Below are positions 1,785 through 9,433 of a DNA stretch of 30,859 nucleotides, in pieces. Under the pieces are notes generated by a model, which searched no databases, was not told where the DNA came from, and worked only from the letters and a program-made list of their open reading frames with translations. A program made the translations under genes and the position numbers. Positions within the stretch are counted from its first letter, which is position 1. Each line of letters opens with the position of its first letter. The stretch lies in IMG/VR virus record IMGVR_UViG_2740892488_000014; one strand, given 5' to 3'. The stretch comes from a virus (Duplodnaviria; Heunggongvirae; Uroviricota; Caudoviricetes).

Positions 1785-2099
1785 ATGGGTACGGCATTAA
1801 TTTCAAGCTTTATTAGTGGTGCAATAGCTATAATCTCTATTGCTATATCTACTTATAATCAGAATAGAATAAACAAGCTCAATGAATCACTGGATGTAAG
1901 GAGAAAACATCAGTACTATATTGAACCGTTAATTCGCTCAGCTTCAGACTTACAAAGCCGTATTTATAATATATTAGAATTGGGGTTCATTGAAGAGTTT
2001 TATCATAATGGGAATAAGCGCCAACAAGATTATGTTATCAACAATACTGTTTTTTCTTTTTTTCCCAGTTTTTTGCATGGACAGAAGCTGCCCGCATAG
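1785..2099 (+). CDS. hypothetical small protein with N-terminal hydrophobic helix (AT-rich islet)
   Basis: 104-aa ORF with AAGGA Shine-Dalgarno about 8 nt upstream of the ATG; N-terminus ISSFISGAIAIISIAIS is a predicted transmembrane segment; no recognisable family. Confidence 0.3.
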   Translation: MGTALISSFISGAIAIISIAISTYNQNRINKLNESLDVRRKHQYYIEPLIRSASDLQSRIYNILELGFIEEFYHNGNKRQQDYVINNTVFSFFPSFLHGQKLPA

Positions 2100-2136
2100 A
2101 CATTCAATACCTTAGCCTAGAAAAAAAATAAAAAAA

Positions 2137-2352
2137 ATGAGGGAGTTTATTAGATTACAGAACAATATTAACTCATTAATCCAAACAGACGTCTTTGGTC
2201 AGTATTTTATGTTTTTCATAGGAGAGCAGAGAGCTATTGCAGAAAAGATGCTGATATCAACAGATACTGGATTTGATTGCATAGGTTACGGCAGTTTCAC
2301 AAAGGAAAATTGCTTTATCAATGAGCCATTTTTTTTTAGATTTAAACAATGA
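2137..2352 (+). CDS. hypothetical small protein (AT-rich islet)
   Basis: 71-aa ORF co-directional with 1785-2099, followed by a 41-codon ORF (2364-2486) and then the hairpin at 2673-2706; the ATG sits in an A-run with no clear RBS. Confidence 0.2.
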   Translation: MREFIRLQNNINSLIQTDVFGQYFMFFIGEQRAIAEKMLISTDTGFDCIGYGSFTKENCFINEPFFFRFKQ

Positions 2353-2672
2353 AGTGATAAATATGACAAGAGATATCGGAATTTATAAAGAAAGGCTAAT
2401 CAGAATACAGCACGCGTTAATCGATTTAATTAATTTTCTTGATCCTGGCATGATTCGATTTGACGGAAAAAAATATGGAAAAATATAACCCAGATGATTC
2501 GTATCAAGGTAAGTTGCTATATGTATCAATTTAATTATGGTTGGGTGAAATTTATGTTAATAGTAGCGGAGGGTTAGTTAAAATATGCTCTCAGTGATTT
2601 TTGGATAGTTCTTTTATTTATCATTGAAAGTAAATATGTATAGCTTCAAGATTTACAAGTGAATCTGTTTAT

Positions 2673-2706
2673 TGACAGTCCGCTTATGGCACAGAGCGGA
2701 CTGTCA
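2673..2706 (+). terminator. intrinsic-terminator-like hairpin closing the plus-strand small-ORF cluster
   Basis: Perfect 11-bp inverted repeat TGACAGTCCGC / GCGGACTGTCA with a 12-nt loop, followed by TATTAAATTT. Confidence 0.4.
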
Positions 2707-2904
2707 TATTAAATTTGGCTCCACGCCATAGATGTGTCAGCTCATATCTTATCTAATACACACAATAACTTTCTCATTCTTGGAGAATTATTTTTTTAAG
2801 GGTAGGTGTTGACGTTAGAGCAAAAGAATGGTGATTTTTTTGATGTGTATTACGTTGGAACTGATGGGAATAACTATCTGTTTTCAACGCACTGCTAATT
2901 TATC

Positions 2905-2926
2905 AAGGCCCTTTGATCAGGGCCTT
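2905..2926 (-). terminator. terminator-like hairpin downstream of the minus-strand ImmA/membrane-protein operon
   Basis: 8-bp stem AAGGCCCT / AGGGCCTT with a 6-nt loop, 25 nt beyond the stop of the 2951-3557 gene. Confidence 0.35.
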
Positions 2927-2950
2927 CGAAAGACTGTTGGACCGAGAGAG

Positions 2951-3557
2951 TTACTTGCGTTTAAAAAGGTATTTTGTCACGACCAGCACGAGGCCGAATA
3001 CCTCTGTCAAAGTACCGCCCATGTACAACTGTAGTGTTAAATCCTCAAATTCCAGCTTACCTGCGCCGTCGGCAATAAATACACCATTCATTATCAGAAG
3101 TTGGAAAGCAAGGATAATCAGGAACCATTTCCCGTATCGTTTTTTTAGAGCGATTTCTGCTTCAAAATCTTTGTTGTTGAGTTGTTTGCGCTCATGCTCG
3201 GTATCAAGTGAATTCACCTGTTTCACAGATGTGAACTCGGTCAAGATTTTACTCTCAGTACGGGTGACTTGTTGAGAGGGTGTAGCAGTTGGAATTCTTT
3301 TGCTAGACGCAGCTACAGCCATTTTGCGAGCTTCGGCAGCTCTTTTTCTGGCTATTCCGCGAATACGGACAGCCGTTTTTTTTGGGGGCGTGCGAAACCT
3401 TTGGCTGAGGTGAAGCTTCGTCAGGAGACTGAACCGGAGTTTCATCGTCCTCCGGCTCAACCTCTTCTGCTAACTGACGGTGTAGGTTGAGGGAATCCTT
3501 CAGTCTGCGTGCTACTTCCTGTTTGAAACGGCTGTTAAAATCGTCATCCGATGGCAT
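2951..3557 (-). CDS. hypothetical membrane protein (acidic N-terminal region, two C-terminal TM helices); frame change at a homopolymer
   Basis: Two overlapping minus-strand ORFs (3303-3557 and 2951-3460) switch frame at the T8 run 3376-3383; the upstream part of one and the downstream part of the other read as protein, the remainders as junk. C-terminal hydrophobic stretches WFLIILAFQLLIMNGVFIA and LTEVFGLVLVVTKYLF. Starts 9 nt after the ImmA stop. Confidence 0.4.
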
Positions 3558-3566
3558 TTTAAAGCG

Positions 3567-4056
3567 TTACCCCAACCTCAAGTTCTTTAAACGATAAGTC
3601 ATCGCATCGTCAGATACGCCAAAATAATGCGCCATTATATAACTTGGTTGACCGTCAGCGTGCAGTTTTCTGACCTCATCTACCGGCATCAGAAGTTCTG
3701 CTGCGAACTTGTTTGCAAAAATTTCATCAGGATGCGTTCCGGCGCTTGCGGTTTCGCCACGTAAATCAACGTACTCATATTCATCGCTATGCGATGCTTG
3801 CCGGGCGATGTAATGCCCCAACTCATGCCCACATGAAAAAACGTTGACGAACTTTGTTGTCATCACTGTTTAGAAAGATCGCTGGATCTTGATCTTTTTG
3901 TTTAATCAGTGCGCCAGAAACTTTCCCAGGAAGATCGGTAATAAAAACATCTAATCCCATGTCGTGAGCAATTTTCGCTGGATCAACAGGGAAACCACGC
4001 CCGCACCAGAACGTGTCCAGCACTCGCCGGGCGTGCTCTCTTGGGTTGGTAGCCAT
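3567..4056 (-). CDS. ImmA/IrrE-family (COG2856-like) HExxH metallopeptidase; frame change at a homopolymer
   Basis: HELGH zinc-binding motif followed by …EIFANKFAAELLMP…, typical of ImmA/IrrE peptidases. Two ORFs (3823-4056 and 3567-3866) join across the A6 run 3836-3841; removing one base gives a continuous ~163-aa protein. GGAGGAG Shine-Dalgarno upstream of the 4056 start. Confidence 0.6.
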
Positions 4057-4130
4057 AGCTCCTCCAGTTACTGCATTACGATTATTGGTTGAAATATAGA
4101 CAGCATGTTCCGTACCACATTCCTGTAAAA

Positions 4131-4145
4131 GTGCAAATTCTGCAC
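4131..4145. promoter_or_regulatory. palindromic operator-like site GTGCAAATTCTGCAC upstream of the ImmA-like gene
   Basis: 5-bp inverted arms GTGCA/TGCAC around a 5-bp spacer, about 75-90 bp upstream of the ImmA start; 12 of 15 positions identical to the site at 4897-4911. Confidence 0.35.
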
Positions 4146-4432
4146 TTCTGGTACGATATTAACTGTTAGTAGTAAAGTCTTCCAGATAAATCACTTTAAA
4201 ATCTTGTGAATTGCTTGCTTTTTACGCTGTATTGTGGATGGTTCAATGTTTCCAGTAAAAACATACATGATAATCATGAGTTTAGTGTTTTTTTAGGCGT
4301 CTATATGTTTCTGGAAAATACAGGTCTAACCTGATCTTATCGTTGAGATTTTTTGTACTCAGTATGCGTGAACGATTCGACCAGGTGACTGTGTACGTGA
4401 AGAAGACCGCCCTTAATATTTTAAATGTGCAA

Positions 4433-4448
4433 CCCCTCAGAAGAGGGG
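4433..4448 (-). terminator. terminator-like hairpin after the small HTH-like ORF
   Basis: CCCCTC-agaa-GAGGGG stem-loop directly downstream of the stop at 4455, then a T-rich stretch on the minus strand. Confidence 0.4.
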
Positions 4449-4454
4449 CTACTC

Positions 4455-4688
4455 TCACTTCTGCAGTATCTCGCCAATACCTGCCAGATTCTCGTCCATC
4501 TTGTCACCGTTTTCGATAAGGATGGAGTTGAGCCGATTCAGTTGCATAGCAATTTCAAGTTTGATTAAGGTATCCACCGATACACCAGTTTCTTTTGCTA
4601 ACTTAGTAAGAGCCGCAGCTCGATTGGCTAAATTAAAATCATCGAACTCATAACGACTTCTGCACGGCTGGTTGCCTAACGTACCCAT
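4455..4688 (-). CDS. small putative DNA-binding protein (helix-turn-helix-like)
   Basis: 77-aa ORF; segment AAALTKLAKETGVSVDTLIKLE looks like a helix-turn-helix; own terminator; divergent from the 4933 gene. Confidence 0.35.
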   Translation of the reverse strand: MGTLGNQPCRSRYEFDDFNLANRAAALTKLAKETGVSVDTLIKLEIAMQLNRLNSILIENGDKMDENLAGIGEILQK

Positions 4689-4896
4689 AGTGATTCCTCA
4701 TGATATAAAGACCCAACAATATAAATTACCAGGCACATCATAAGATAGGGTTCCAGCCCATATTTTCAAATATTTGCAAGTATCACCGTTCAGTCTAAAA
4801 AGTTGGATGATGATTTAACGAGCCATAACAAAACCCTGCCTCGGAGGTTTTTTTCTTTTTTATAGAACTCAGCGGCGTGAAAACGAATAATAAATT

Positions 4897-5574: not shown

Positions 5575-5581
5575 TGACCAT

Positions 5582-5610
5582 AAACGGTTTAATCCCCTAT
5601 AAAACCGTTT
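5582..5610 (+). terminator. terminator-like hairpin after the 4933-5574 gene
   Basis: 9-bp stem AAACGGTTT / AAACCGTTT with an 11-nt loop, followed by AATAAAATT. Confidence 0.3.
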
Positions 5611-5691
5611 AATAAAATTCACGACGTGAATATAATTGTTCATTATTCCCTCATTGTATTTGGCGTTATGACAAATGCCATAAAATACTGT

Positions 5692-5699
5692 ATAAATAT
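5692..5699. repeat. left copy of the 8-bp target-site duplication ATAAATAT
   Basis: Identical 8-mer directly abuts both termini of the element (5692-5699 and 7585-7592). Confidence 0.75.
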
Positions 5700-5727
5700 G
5701 GGTCTTCCCCGATCATGGTGGGAAGAC

Positions 5728-6948
5728 TCAGTACGCCATATTCAGTTTCCCATAGTGGAACATAACTCCCAGTTTAAAGCGTTCCCGGTTTCGGTATCCC
5801 CTGGCCTTTATCCTCAGCAGTCTGATCTTGCTGTTCAGCGCCTCCGCATTTCCATTCGAGACGCGATGACGCATTGCATTCAGTATTCCGTATAACCGTT
5901 TTTTAATGGTTTTCGCTGCGTTTTTCATCATCGGCACATCACATTCAGACGCCAGCGATATCCACTGCAACCAGTCATTCCTGCGTTCTGTGCTCCAGGG
6001 GCGATCCCAGATATTTTTTGCCAGCTCTTTCAGTGTCCAGCACTGGCTTGTCTGTTGCATCTGTTCCCGCAACCACATCAGCTTTTCCTGCCGGGACTCA
6101 GTCATCCATTTGTCGCTGTACTGCCACAGGAAGCGGGTACCTTTGGCCTGACGACGACTTTCAACAGGGAGGTGCGGATGTTCATTCTGGCGGGTTTTAT
6201 CAACCACTTCGCCCAGTTGCTTCGCCACATGGAAGCGATCGAAGGCGATTTTCTCGACCGCATTGGGTAAATGGATACGCGCTGCTCTTATATAGCCCGC
6301 ATTCATGTCCATCGACAGTGTTTTGATGGCCAACAACTGACTGTCAGTAAGCGAACGGAGATAGCTGGCAAGACTCTCTGTGCCACGATCATCGGTTAAT
6401 GCCAGTGCCCGCCCGTCGCGATCAGATACCACGGTTATATACCTATGCCCTTTTTTAAAGGCGACTTCGTCTACATTCATATGACGCACTGATAAAGGCT
6501 TTTTAATCCGCGACAGGCCTCGCTTAACCGCGCGGGTCATGATGCCGTCAACGGCATTCCAGCTAAGTTTAAGTTGTTTTCTGACCGCATCAACGGTGCT
6601 GATTTTAAGCCATGAGAGCACGAACGATTCGAACAGCAGAGTGTACCGACTGCCGGAACCTGCCCACGGTACAGGCAGAGTCTGGCAGCCATGCTCCGGG
6701 CACATAACGCGGGGAACATCGGCTTCTACTAATGTCATGAACTGGCAGGTATCAAGGTGGCGCCATTTACGATGTCGGTGATCGTGAACAGAACAGGATT
6801 TCCTGCAGGTCGGACAGGTTAACTGAGTATTTTCAGCAATTCCGACTGTAACAGTAACGGAACCTGCATTTTCATCGAGGGTAAGGGATTTAACCTGCCA
6901 TGGTGCAGTCAGGTTAAGGATATGGGCATAGAGGGATTTTTCGTCCAT
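5728..6948 (-). CDS. ISL3-family transposase
   Basis: 406-aa ORF with an N-terminal Cys/His cluster (CPTC…C…H) and central/C-terminal region (…VDEVAFKKGHRYITVVSD…FDRFHVAKQL…) matching ISL3 transposase architecture. Confidence 0.85.
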   Translation of the reverse strand: MDEKSLYAHILNLTAPWQVKSLTLDENAGSVTVTVGIAENTQLTCPTCRKSCSVHDHRHRKWRHLDTCQFMTLVEADVPRVMCPEHGCQTLPVPWAGSGSRYTLLFESFVLSWLKISTVDAVRKQLKLSWNAVDGIMTRAVKRGLSRIKKPLSVRHMNVDEVAFKKGHRYITVVSDRDGRALALTDDRGTESLASYLRSLTDSQLLAIKTLSMDMNAGYIRAARIHLPNAVEKIAFDRFHVAKQLGEVVDKTRQNEHPHLPVESRRQAKGTRFLWQYSDKWMTESRQEKLMWLREQMQQTSQCWTLKELAKNIWDRPWSTERRNDWLQWISLASECDVPMMKNAAKTIKKRLYGILNAMRHRVSNGNAEALNSKIRLLRIKARGYRNRERFKLGVMFHYGKLNMAY

Positions 6949-6966
6949 ATAATTTCATTCTGAAGC

Positions 6967-7485
6967 TTACTTTAAACTGATATTATTATTTTTTGCCCAC
7001 TTTCTTAATCTTCCATTAGCGTTGGCGTAAGGCGAAGATGTGTTAAATGAGATCATTCTCCCCATCGTCCATTTTGTGTACCATGGTCTTCCATACAAAA
7101 TATCATCGGTACGATCATTAATAAGGTTCACAATCTCATTTTTTACAGTCTGAAGTTCAGCTACTAACAACTCATAACTTAACTCACTGTAATCTGAGTA
7201 AAATTTTTGAGCAAGAAGGCCAAGCTGATTCCATTTATAGCCAGTTTCCGGAAAATCGACAGGCAGACCTTTAGCATCAGAAGCGATCCACTTTACAACA
7301 AGAGCATTCCATCCAAGCAGATACGAAACGAGATCACGAACACTCATCTCCGTTCCTTTGGCGTGTCCGTCCATTGATTTATCTGAAGTAATTTCTGGTG
7401 GGATTGTGTTGAGGTAACTAATTAATTTACTAAAATTTTTATCAATAGCTAAAAGCAGTTCAGCTTTTGTTTGCGGCACACTCAT
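6967..7485 (-). CDS. ClbS/DfsB-like (DUF1706) four-helix-bundle protein, passenger inside the ISL3 element
   Basis: 172-aa ORF; motifs GHAKGT, LVSYLLGW, FPETGYKWN, LAQKFY, YGRPWYTKWTMGRMI and FNTSSPY match my recollection of this family; lies between the transposase gene and the right inverted repeat. Confidence 0.5.
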   Translation of the reverse strand: MSVPQTKAELLLAIDKNFSKLISYLNTIPPEITSDKSMDGHAKGTEMSVRDLVSYLLGWNALVVKWIASDAKGLPVDFPETGYKWNQLGLLAQKFYSDYSELSYELLVAELQTVKNEIVNLINDRTDDILYGRPWYTKWTMGRMISFNTSSPYANANGRLRKWAKNNNISLK

Positions 7486-7584
7486 AAGAATTCCCTCTCA
7501 TGTAAAAAGAGACACCATAAAGGTACTGTGTGGTGTTTGAAAATCGCTCAATTATGTACCACCCACCACAACAGGGGAAGACCC

Positions 7585-7592
7585 ATAAATAT
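7585..7592. repeat. right copy of the 8-bp target-site duplication ATAAATAT
   Basis: Identical to 5692-5699, directly outside the right inverted repeat. Confidence 0.75.
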
Positions 7593-7596
7593 ACAG
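7585..7596. promoter_or_regulatory. right half of a LexA (SOS) box split by the ISL3 insertion
   Basis: Removing the element and one duplication copy restores tACTGTATAAATATACAGgt, i.e. CTGT-N8-ACAG, about 25 bp upstream of the ATG at 7619; the left half is 5688-5699. Confidence 0.55.
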
Positions 7597-7618
7597 GTTG
7601 TGGCATTGGGGGGAAGAC

Positions 7619-7798
7619 ATGAATATTCAAGAATCTATAGGCGAACTACCGGAAACATGCCGGGCTGTTATCAAGCGTAAGGACGGACACATCGTTGGTG
7701 TGCGTGTTCTGACCGATGATGAGCGGATTGCCAGCCTGATGGCGTTTCTCGAGTTGGCAGAAATAGCTGGATATACTATTACACCCCCTGACGCGTAA
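7619..7798 (+). CDS. small hypothetical phage protein, first gene downstream of the disrupted SOS box
   Basis: 59 codons from ATG 7619, preceded by GGGGGGAAGA Shine-Dalgarno; the ORF track begins at an upstream TTG (7598). Confidence 0.4.
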   Translation: MNIQESIGELPETCRAVIKRKDGHIVGVRVLTDDERIASLMAFLELAEIAGYTITPPDA

Positions 7799-7875: not shown

Positions 7876-8472
7876 ATGGCGCAGCATTCATTTATCAGGG
7901 TATCCGGCGGTTCGCTAATACCCGCGACACCAGACACGCAACGCTGGTTGACTGAACGAGTCAAACCAGGTGCTGTTGTGTATGCAGATTTCAAACAGGC
8001 GCGTAATCCCGCGTTTCATCGTAAATTTTTCTCACTTCTCAACCTGGGCTTTGATTACTGGCATCCGTCCGGAGGGGCTATTTCTCCTGCGGAGCGCGAA
8101 CTGGTTCACGGCTACGTTAAGTTACTGGCGTATTACGGTGGACACGGTGATGTCATGGCAGAGCTGGCTGATCAGTATCTTCTCGATGAGTCGGAAAAGC
8201 GCGCGGGGAGTATCAGTGCGGTGAAGTCGTTCGAGGCGTTTCGCGCATGGGCGATTATGGAAGCTGGGTTTTATGACGTTCATCAGATGCCAGACGGCAG
8301 TTTGATGCGCGTACCTCGTTCAATCTCGTTTGCAGCGATGGACGATCTTGAGTTCGGTCAACTGTATTCAGCCGTTTTAGATGTGCTGTGGAATTATATT
8401 TTGTTCCGCACATTTGCCTCTCAGGAGGCCGCTGAAAATGCCGCCGCGCAGCTGCTGGATTACACATCATGA
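7876..8472 (+). CDS. lambdoid nin-region protein, YbcN/DUF1367-like
   Basis: 198-aa ORF with GGAG Shine-Dalgarno; stop overlaps the next start (ATGA); position and sequence recall prophage YbcN-type proteins. Confidence 0.55.
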   Translation: MAQHSFIRVSGGSLIPATPDTQRWLTERVKPGAVVYADFKQARNPAFHRKFFSLLNLGFDYWHPSGGAISPAERELVHGYVKLLAYYGGHGDVMAELADQYLLDESEKRAGSISAVKSFEAFRAWAIMEAGFYDVHQMPDGSLMRVPRSISFAAMDDLEFGQLYSAVLDVLWNYILFRTFASQEAAENAAAQLLDYTS

Positions 8473-8762
8473 AAAAAATCGACCTGAGAAAAGCTGCACG
8501 CAGTCGCGCTTGTACTGTGCGTATCCCCGGTGTGTGCAATCACAATCCTGAAACCAGCGTACTGGCTCATTATCGTCTCGCCGGAACGTGCGGCACAGCC
8601 ATCAAACCTCACGATATGCAGGGCGCTATCGCCTGCAGTGCGTGTCACGATGCCATCGACGGACGTACAAAAACGGATTACGAGCACGACTCATTGTTGT
8701 TGATGCACGCTGAGGGAGTTTTCAGAACACTGGCTATCTGGCGCGATGAGGAGTTTATCTGA
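8469..8762 (+). CDS. YbcO/DUF1364-like putative nuclease (lambdoid nin region)
   Basis: 97-aa ORF; Cys-rich signature RIPGVCNHNPETSVLAHYRL…ACSACHDAIDG matches the YbcO family as I recall it. Confidence 0.7.
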   Translation: MKKIDLRKAARSRACTVRIPGVCNHNPETSVLAHYRLAGTCGTAIKPHDMQGAIACSACHDAIDGRTKTDYEHDSLLLMHAEGVFRTLAIWRDEEFI

Positions 8763-9433
8763 TGAGTAACGAGTATTTATTGGAATATACCCGCATAAAA
8801 CTGCGCGCTGCATTGCGGGATTTGTCTGGTGGTTCTAAGGGGCAACTGGAAGCATTGTGTGAGCACCCACCGGCAGACAAAAACGCATACCCACGCAAAC
8901 ATATTCACCGTGTGCAGCTGGAGGACCGGACCGTTGATGCTCTGGTTACGCCAGTTTACGCTCTGGAAAGTTTCAGCAGACGTCGCCCCGCGCCGCCGAT
9001 GAGTGATTTTGAATTTGCTGATTCATCCTGGCGGCGTTCTGTGAACTCGCTGGATGCAAGTCAGCAAGCGTGGTTGCGTTATTGCTACGGTGGTAACCTG
9101 GCATTCAAACACCAAACAGCTATTTGTGAGGCTGTCTGGAGTCGCTATAAAGGAAACATCCCCGCGTCAACTCAGAGAAAAGTAGTTAAGCGCCTGCTTT
9201 CGTTGGTGTGGTTGTCCGTGCAGGCGGTCGCAGCAGCAAATAAACGCGAGGATTTTAAGGAGATGGCCGGATCTACCCTAGCAGGAATGCTGTCGGTTTC
9301 TCGTTCCACCTGGTGCGAAACATACTCCCTGCACTGGGTAGGAATGAAAGAGGCGGTGAGAGCACTTGATGAAGTGGCACTTCTTGCAACTTTGCATCAT
9401 TATCAGAACCATTTAGACGACGTTTGCGTATAA
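8762..9433 (+). CDS. putative late-gene antiterminator (Q-like), called by position
   Basis: 223-aa ORF directly after the nin-type genes and before a promoter-like region and the lysis cassette; no sequence-level match to lambda Q is claimed. Confidence 0.35.
   Translation: MSNEYLLEYTRIKLRAALRDLSGGSKGQLEALCEHPPADKNAYPRKHIHRVQLEDRTVDALVTPVYALESFSRRRPAPPMSDFEFADSSWRRSVNSLDASQQAWLRYCYGGNLAFKHQTAICEAVWSRYKGNIPASTQRKVVKRLLSLVWLSVQAVAAANKREDFKEMAGSTLAGMLSVSRSTWCETYSLHWVGMKEAVRALDEVALLATLHHYQNHLDDVCV

Follow-up and report, generated by a model that had tools for sequence, protein, structure and literature searches.

Several mobile elements are known to choose their targets by sequence. They include IS1397 and ISKpn1, which use repetitive extragenic palindromic (REP)/bacterial interspersed mosaic element (BIME) palindromes, IS30, which uses palindromic hot spots, IS1111-attC, Tn7, which uses attTn7, and the Tn5053-type 'res hunters'. 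Here we describe ISEc53, an insertion sequence (IS) of the ISL3 family, in a 30,859-nucleotide stretch of DNA from a tailed phage (Caudoviricetes; IMG/VR record IMGVR_UViG_2740892488_000014), hereafter the window. In this window, ISEc53 splits what appears to be a LexA operator, or SOS box. Like the elements listed above, ISEc53 and its relatives insert at a defined, repeated motif that offers a safe intergenic landing site and also occurs on plasmids and phages. Unlike those elements, they appear to use the operator of a global stress regulator as their motif, such that each insertion would withdraw one gene or operon from SOS control or separate it from its promoter. Among target-specific ISs, one whose targets are operators of a global stress regulon would be new. 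No description of SOS-box targeting by ISL3 elements or ISEc53 was found in the searchable literature, a scope that leaves ISfinder and subscription journals outside.

Two published descriptions concern the element studied here. The ISL3 insertion in fimB of Escherichia coli sequence type 131 (ST131) and strain Nissle 1917 (PMC3203889) and the 'clbS-like transposon' of a recent preprint (bioRxiv 10.1101/2025.11.17.686825) are both ISEc53, with the same cargo. In the former study, the same fimB position was found to be occupied in Nissle 1917 and 5-bp repeats were noted (Totsika et al. 2011, PMC3203889). The preprint places the element 'near otherwise unrelated genes' (bioRxiv 10.1101/2025.11.17.686825). 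Neither report mentions an SOS-box logic or the resemblance of the fimB site to an SOS box.

Our reading of the locus has two linked parts, to which we jointly assign a probability of roughly 85%. First, positions 5686-5699 and 7585-7598 would together have formed one genuine LexA operator, lying over a sigma-70 promoter, ATGACA-17-TATAAA. Second, the split would not be a matter of chance, as the ISEc53 group inserts precisely at the centres of SOS boxes.

Results

ISEc53 and its empty site

ISEc53 occupies positions 5700-7584 on the minus strand. The element is 1,885 bp long and is bounded by 23-bp imperfect terminal inverted repeats (IRs) at 5700-5722 and 7562-7584. These start with GGGTCTTCCCC and match at 19 of 23 positions. 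The transposase gene (5728-6948, minus strand) encodes a 406-amino-acid (aa) ISL3 protein with Zn-ribbon, helix-turn-helix (HTH) and DDE domains. The protein matched Pfam PF01610 (1.3e-58), together with PF13542 and PF14690, and the NCBIfam model transpos_ISL3, whose cut-off of 180 it clears with 328 bits. In RefSeq, the transposase of identical copies is labelled 'ISL3-like element ISEc53 family'. The cargo gene (6967-7485, minus strand) encodes a 172-aa ClbS/DfsB-family (DUF1706) protein, a 'clbS-like' colibactin-resistance homologue (Pfam PF08020, 3e-54; RefSeq name; bioRxiv 10.1101/2025.11.17.686825).

The element is flanked by an 8-bp target duplication, ATAAATAT, at 5692-5699 and 7585-7592. 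The left flank terminates in AAAATACTGT ATAAATAT (5688-5699). Thus, the left half of the split box (5686-5699, plus strand) consists of TACTGT and the left copy of the duplication, and the right half (7585-7598, plus strand) consists of the right copy and ACAGGT. Deleting ISEc53 and one copy of the repeat yields TACTGTATAAATATACAGGT, that is, CTGT-N8-ACAG (longer context, AAAATACTGTATAAATATACAGGTTG).

The 600 nt to the left of the element and the 608 nt to its right were joined and used to search 5,426 complete E. coli genomes. At least 80% of the length of this rebuilt junction was matched in 419 chromosomes, mostly of ST131. The 30 best of these 419 records, which include the ST131 strains EC958 and JJ1886, were 100% identical over all 1,208 nt, and one prophage record also matched the junction at full length. 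Because IS-free genomes carry the identical junction, the reconstruction represents the real ancestral site. ISEc53 was found at this exact position in 13 complete E. coli genomes, so that its insertion here took place recently and marks only a minority sub-lineage. An earlier note, made from the DNA letters alone, had claimed that an ISL3 insertion splits a near-consensus LexA box and leaves one half-site on each flank, and had called for a comparison with IS-free relatives. The comparison bears the note out: the intact box is present in those relatives, and the half-sites reach to 5699 on the left and start at 7585 on the right.

Quality and conservation of the LexA operator

Candidate operators were scored using a symmetric LexA matrix based on 26 E. 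coli SOS boxes. The rebuilt 20-mer, for which the earlier note had proposed such scoring, reached 25.15 bits. This is within the range of known E. coli boxes and third-best when the 26 sites are scored leave-one-out, only dinD and umuDC being higher. The present-day junction 20-mers scored 0.3 and -2.8 bits. The same matrix recovered the experimentally defined LexA box of the Salmonella prophage Gifsy-2 at 23.7 bits (PMC3121763). Elsewhere in the window, no LexA-like site exceeded about 10 bits, and nothing inside ISEc53 that might control the transposase or the clbS-like gene reached 8 bits. CTGT-N8-ACAG occurs 0 times in the intact, IS-carrying window, versus 0.15 times expected by chance. 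We also considered whether the insertion had created a new LexA box or a hybrid promoter at the junctions. This was rejected, as the junctions score about 0 bits and no -35 hexamer was seen at the right distance.

The operator appears to overlie a promoter. By eye, we recognized a -35 hexamer, ATGACA, at 5668-5673 (plus strand) and, 17 bp after it, a -10 hexamer, TATAAA, at 5691-5696 (plus strand). The latter lies within the LexA box and now faces into ISEc53, antisense to the transposase gene. The earlier note had placed the box over a -10-like TATAAAT, with its centre some 25 bp before the ATG at 7619. The hexamer that suits a 17-bp spacer is TATAAA, and the distance from the centre of the box is corrected to about 30 bp. 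A promoter scan demands T at position 6 of the -10 hexamer, hence TATAAA is unlisted by it. The scan returned 3 sites, versus 4.8 in shuffled sequence.

The downstream gene, an open reading frame (ORF) of 59 codons described below, allowed a diverged comparison. Homologues 75-76% identical to its product were present at six loci. In these loci, the -35 context, TTATGACA, is unchanged, the 13 nt between the -35 hexamer and the box vary freely, and CTGT and ACAG are retained in five of the six. The -35 context was constant in seven diverged loci. Upstream of homologues 73-76% identical, the half-sites and the -35 hexamer are kept while neighbouring bases drift, as would be expected if operator and promoter were functional. 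The sixth locus has a 2-bp deletion within the box (TACTG--TATATATACAG, at about 3960-3980 of that locus), which would likewise uncouple the 59-aa gene from LexA, by another route.

Target specificity of the ISEc53/ISKox3 group

At other copies of ISEc53, the match to the query extended 13-19 bp past both ends of the IS. We examined eight independent E. coli sites of ISEc53 or ISKox3, a cargo-less relative of 1,316 bp with 85% nucleotide identity to ISEc53. Seven of these are LexA boxes and one, in fimB, is a pseudo-box. The seven are the box in the window, two other prophage boxes and those of a plasmid dinI-umuDC region, dinD, an umuD-like gene of an IncX3 plasmid and sbmC. The central 8 bp were duplicated at all four further ISEc53 LexA-box sites in E. 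coli. These sites are TACTGT-ATAAATAT-ACAGTT at a prophage small gene, TACTGT-AAAAATAT-CCAGTT at a prophage DNA methyltransferase gene, TACTGT-ATATACAT-ACAGCA at a plasmid dinI-like/umuDC region, and AACTGT-ATTTATAT-ACAGTT at chromosomal dinD, the classical dinD box. On a 51.5-kb IncX3 plasmid, ISKox3 was found in TACTGTATATGCATACAGCT, a box that precedes a small ORF and an umuD-like S24 gene; it was also found in the sbmC box TACTGTATATAAAAACAGTG of the chromosome of E. coli XYEH3314.

The sample was then widened to viral contigs, searched by IR tip, species-representative genomes, searched by transposase, and metagenomes, searched by transposase alignment. The conserved IR tip served as the anchor for locating element ends, because an unanchored inverted-repeat search had produced spurious ends at many loci. 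CTGT lay exactly at -12 to -9 from the IS end in 138 of 182 unique ISEc53/ISKox3-group junction flanks. A further 7 of the 182 had CTGG at this position, and CTGN totalled 149. The flank consensus, aaTACTGTATATATAT directly abutting the IS, agrees with one half-site of the consensus for LexA in E. coli. From complete elements whose 8-bp duplications are perfect, 36 unique sites were rebuilt; 34 of these scored at least 18 bits, and 30 were exact CTGT-N8-ACAG. Among 20,000 random 20-mers from the same loci, none reached 14 bits, and the 99.9th percentile was 3.5.

The first outward-facing neighbours of the elements included genes for DinI (7), S24/UmuD-type proteins (4), RecA, SulA, YdjM, TisB, a colicin and DinD. 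By eye, uvrA/ssb and cho were recognized as well. Beside recognizable SOS genes, there was no orientation bias relative to the regulated gene (8 versus 11), and the use of both orientations fits a palindromic target. A 79-aa phage protein of unknown function, phrog_3893, recurs beside the boxes that were hit and is a frequent target in viral contigs, with twelve loci having it as a neighbour. In several of these, its gene and a dinI-like gene point away from each other on either side of one common LexA box. The 79-aa neighbours were considered as Tum-like antirepressors of the P2/186 type. This idea was dropped, as tblastn led to hypothetical proteins encoded beside dinI in the lambdoid phages mEp390, HK225 and HK140.

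Comparison with a sister clade

The metagenome scan also provided a control in the form of a sister ISL3 group, 41-47% identical to ISEc53, whose inner IRs run into ATCGAGTGGGT. This group makes clean 8-bp duplications, and the A+T content of its targets is 0.85, as in the SOS-box clade. CTGN at -12 to -9 was found in 0 of 49 unique flanks of the sister clade. In a neighbour-joining tree of transposases, the elements that hit SOS boxes formed one clade, sister to the control group. The single clade and the 0 of 49 in its sister together argue that the trait is an inherited property of one ISL3 branch.

The SOS-box clade holds deep lineages, at 38-46% identity, including several environmental elements. 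A Marinobacter element occupies a yebG box, TACTGG-TCAAACGT-ACAGTA, and Achromobacter elements occupy CTGT-ATGGATTT-CCAG and CTGG-GTCAGTTT-TCAG. Since the spacer of the sites is not AT-rich in these higher-GC hosts, what the elements always need seems to be a pair of half-sites with 8 bp between them. Like other ISL3 elements, the ISEc53/ISKox3 branch has a transposase with Zn-ribbon, HTH and DDE_Tnp_ISL3 domains, IRs starting from GGGTCTTC, AT-rich 8-bp duplications and optional cargo. Unlike the sister clade, it also requires CTGT and ACAG around the 8-bp target. As judged from these junctions, the choice of SOS boxes is layered upon the general taste of the ISL3 family for AT-rich 8-mers.

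Insertions at fimB and in Symbiopectobacterium

The commonest chromosomal copy of ISEc53 is the known fimB insertion of ST131 (PMC3203889). At fimB::ISEc53 of E. coli R13, the flanks share 5 bp (ATATA), not the usual 8. Separately, about 30 copies of a 1,315-bp member of the clade were found in one genome, that of Candidatus Symbiopectobacterium endolongispinus. Many of these copies have non-matching duplications, yet each of their flanks still carries CTGT or ACAG, as would be expected if copies had recombined with one another.

Cargo and distribution

Clade members carry a clbS-like gene (1,885 bp), a FosA-type gene (1,761 bp), a gene for an unknown 293-aa protein (2,215 bp) or no cargo. Because the cargo differs among members, the target preference is independent of it. 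The 1,761-bp member was found at 2937-4697 of a contig from a Scandinavium sp. metagenome-assembled genome. It lies in TGCTGTATATGCATACAGTG, and its cargo is a glutathione transferase of the FosA type, associated with fosfomycin resistance (NCBIfam Fos_GSH; score, 199.7 bits; cut-off, 180). The 2,215-bp variant was found at 2034-4248 in two loci. Its 293-aa cargo protein has no NCBIfam match and, by eye, resembles ADP-ribosyltransferase-type effectors.

Among 20,395 E. coli chromosome and plasmid records, ISEc53 is present at 99% identity or higher in 724, and ISKox3-like elements at 80-90% identity are present in 1,305. ISEc53/ISKox3-like elements are located on IncX3 and F-type plasmids and in ST131. 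ISKox3 is common on IncX3 plasmids, which are carriers of NDM.

The prophage and the 59-aa gene

In the Salmonella Gifsy prophages, the repressors are not cleaved (Lemire et al. 2011, PMC3121763). Gifsy-2 has the order terminator, LexA box, dinI, gftA (73 aa), STM1020 and, further on, Q. The prophage of the window appears to be an ST131 lambdoid prophage with the same regulatory layout. Over the 14.8 kb that they share, the window and EC958 differ in homopolymer indels only. The EC958 copy of the prophage encodes a 130-aa, HTH-only (HTH_3) repressor, divergent from YdaS/YdaT-like genes. This repressor is 33% identical to GtgR of Gifsy-2 over its full length (E 5e-23) and is without an S24 protease domain. 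Thus, like the Gifsy-1, -2 and -3 modules (GfoA, GftA and GfhA; PMC3121763), the prophage combines a short HTH repressor lacking a cleavage domain, here a GtgR homologue, with a LexA box located outside the immunity region, after the replication genes. The box is followed by a small ORF, a DUF1367 orthologue and Q. STM1020, the DUF1367 protein of Gifsy-2, is 56% identical to the product of 7876-8472 in the window. Unlike Gifsy-2, there is no dinI between the box and the small ORF. The rebuilt box is the sole LexA-like site of at least 11 bits in the approximately 49 kb of prophage that were scanned (two EC958 loci and the rest of the window).

The small ORF (7619-7798, plus strand; WP_001025459, phrog_340) encodes 59 aa, starts 22 bp downstream of the box and has few homologues. 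It would formerly have been under the SOS promoter, and it is a candidate antirepressor gene by position only. Downstream, all on the plus strand, are genes for a DUF1367/NinB-like protein (7876-8472), YbcO (8469-8762) and antiterminator Q (8762-9433). The stretch from the 59-aa ORF to these genes contains no terminator that could be detected. Searches of Pfam, NCBIfam and PDB profiles returned no match for the 59-aa protein, and PHROGs returned a family of unknown function alone. An AlphaFold2 model (predicted local distance difference test score, 80) consists of a short helix, a beta-hairpin and a long helix. Using Foldseek, this model had no significant structural neighbour in PDB or BFVD.

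The earlier note had proposed a LexA-controlled antirepressor. The context supports this part of its claim, and the antirepressor reading is well motivated, because the type of repressor, the gene order and the single SOS box match the Gifsy context. Tum of coliphage 186 and AntC of N15 would be functional parallels. In contrast to this context, homology to GftA or to known structures was not found: GftA and the 59-aa protein resemble each other neither in sequence nor in profile, and the two belong to different PHROG families (phrog_340 and phrog_4847, respectively). We consider it close to an even proposition that the protein is an antirepressor, the assignment being one of analogous position.

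Another SOS-induced function is credible at slightly short of even odds. The 59-aa protein could be a modulator of RecA or LexA, a division inhibitor or a toxin, or the ORF could be the leader of an SOS transcript reaching ninB-like, ybcO and Q. The missing homology to GftA and GfoA, the unknown function of phrog_340 and the lack of a detected terminator before DUF1367-YbcO-Q are as expected of such roles, and further prophage boxes struck by the clade precede dinI-like genes, a DNA methyltransferase gene and unknown small genes. Against these roles, a GtgR-type repressor without a cleavage domain requires an SOS-linked inactivator, the prophage parts scanned have only this one SOS box, and the ORF holds the position of gftA, directly upstream of the DUF1367 orthologue. 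Finally, phage vB_EcoM-705R4 was not used as proof of inducibility, as the only paper describing it deals with prophages inside the genomes of clinical isolates, so that its record may be a prophage extracted from a genome rather than an induced phage.

Other features of the window

An inverted repeat, TAAACGGTTTAAT/ATAAAACCGTTTA, lies at 5581-5611 (plus strand), just past the stop codon of an upstream 225-aa gene, and is weakly terminator-like. Terminator-like palindromes also precede the Gifsy LexA boxes (PMC3121763). The hairpin is not conserved in the diverged relatives. A palindrome, ATTCACGACGTGAAT, at 5617-5631 overlaps a strong promoter-like site at 5609-5636 and is mostly kept in the relatives (ATTCACGnGGTGAAT). 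It may be a candidate operator for another regulator.

Positions 1-543 of the window are the end of a copy of ISEc52, an IS3-family element that is absent there in EC958 and interrupts the prophage near an LprI-like gene. Twelve differences separate the window from EC958 (at 2055, 2057, 2128, 2130, 2329, 3376, 3836, 4848, 10024, 10087, 12896 and 15859). All are +1 indels in A/T homopolymers, there being no substitutions, and they are probably assembly errors. They give rise to apparent frameshifts, for example in an ImmA/IrrE-like gene and its neighbour.

Discussion

The junctions suggest a simple mechanism. A symmetric transpososome would recognize CTGT and ACAG and cut at their inner edges with an 8-bp stagger. 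Because the cuts would be staggered at these edges, the central 8 bp would be duplicated and one half-site would remain on each flank. The operator would be lost, since neither junction could bind a LexA dimer. We favour a transposase that itself reads both half-sites, rather than one guided by LexA.

The insertion would have two consequences for transcription. The promoter, now without its operator, would stay on the left flank and be constitutively active, with its transcripts running into the transposase gene from the 3' side. This transcription would be antisense and may quieten the element. The promoter is also 1,885 bp farther from the 59-aa gene than before, behind divergently oriented IS genes. 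The 59-aa gene, and with it SOS-driven read-through towards Q, would lose SOS control. Most likely, SOS induction of the 59-aa gene would be lost, constitutive low expression being the alternative. If the 59-aa protein is an antirepressor, the prophage would no longer be inducible by DNA damage.

Several points weigh against the reading of the locus as a LexA operator hit by a box-specific element. Binding of LexA to the rebuilt TACTGTATAAATATACAGGT box and SOS induction of the 59-aa gene before the insertion are both deduced from sequence, and the preference of the transposase for the box is deduced from junctions. The 26 boxes of the matrix were not taken from a database, and flank sequence rather than phylogeny was the basis on which duplicate junctions were removed. 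The assignment of the promoter is not unique: the scan found TTAATA-16-TATAAT at 5609-5636, about 50 bp upstream of the box. Moreover, a weak, outward-facing promoter-like site within ISEc53 (7409-7436) could express the 59-aa gene. As the window does not include the immunity region, its description comes from EC958, and BLASTP gave no alignment between the 59-aa protein and GftA of Gifsy-2, which also counts against the antirepressor. Some insertions are not in good boxes. The intact fimB site of K-12, AAGTGTATATATATCCATCG (within 220-300 of the extracted locus), is GTGT-N8-CCAT, a look-alike that scores 11.5 bits. Two loci, L089 and L108, score 3 bits each and have GC-rich or imperfect sites. 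Finally, a few of the Symbiopectobacterium copies are away from boxes.

The best-surviving alternative for target choice is that it is guided by LexA. The transpososome could be tethered to operator-bound LexA, or the box could be usable only after LexA is cleaved. At every position, the target logo matches that of LexA, down to the outer T/A and the tolerance of CTGG/CCAG, and the sites used are real SOS-regulon operators. In addition, the site centres in Marinobacter and Achromobacter are not AT-rich, as expected of the boxes of those hosts. Conversely, the trait maps to a transposase clade, and L089 has perfect half-sites around a GC-rich centre. At fimB, the C of CTG is missing from one half-site and the G of CAG from the other, so that LexA would probably bind there poorly, yet the position is reported to be occupied in both EC958 and Nissle 1917 (PMC3203889). 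This near-cognate site speaks mildly for a transposase that reads the DNA itself and against guidance by LexA. Among the clade members found, no host has a different LexA motif; all share CTGT-N8-ACAG. Overall, we consider LexA guidance possible and unlikely. A more far-reaching version is somewhat more doubtful still. According to this version, the landing pad of the clade is the LexA operator, possibly recognized via LexA or only cleaved LexA, so that transposition would itself be coupled to the SOS response, and the SOS regulon would be remodelled with every hop.

Random insertion followed by survival only in SOS boxes, deregulated SOS genes being advantageous, is very improbable. Blocked prophage induction or deregulated umuDC/dinI could be of benefit, and such insertions are carried in clonal lineages. 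Selection does not explain the base-pair precision or why the central 8 bp are always duplicated. Insertions a few bp away would deregulate the genes equally, yet none were seen. Further, the element is found in both orientations, and its targets are as unrelated as recA, a colicin gene, tisB and sbmC. Least probable of all is coincidence, in which an ISL3 element favouring AT-rich targets landed in a LexA-like palindrome: the 8 nt beside the IS end are indeed 85% A+T in both clades, but the CTGT offset of the SOS-box clade (138 of 182) is absent from the sister clade (0 of 49), whose targets are equally AT-rich, all but 2 of the 36 rebuilt sites score at least 18 bits, and the neighbouring genes are canonical SOS genes.

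The preferred reading, insertion of the ISEc53 group at the centres of LexA operators, provides a simple rule. Where ISEc53, ISKox3 or a relative is present, an SOS box would have been destroyed, and the gene losing LexA control is predictable. The rule joins three apparently separate observations: the clbS-like 'colibactin resistance transposon', the fimB insertion of ST131 and ISKox3 beside umuD on IncX3 plasmids. It predicts that, in strains with the insertion described here, neither mitomycin C nor fluoroquinolones nor colibactin would induce the prophage. Because its target is a 16-bp operator, such an IS would also be a tractable system for studying target choice by DDE transposases, and could be a natural marker for new SOS boxes.

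If the reading is correct, the recurrent fimB::ISL3 of ST131 and Nissle 1917 would be an off-target hit on a look-alike of the SOS box. If, in addition, the landing pad is wired to the SOS response, prophage antirepressor modules would leave SOS control, with an expected block of SOS induction, and umuDC/dinI would be deregulated on resistance plasmids such as IncX3. The clbS-like or fosA cargo would then protect the host against the very agents that trigger the SOS response.

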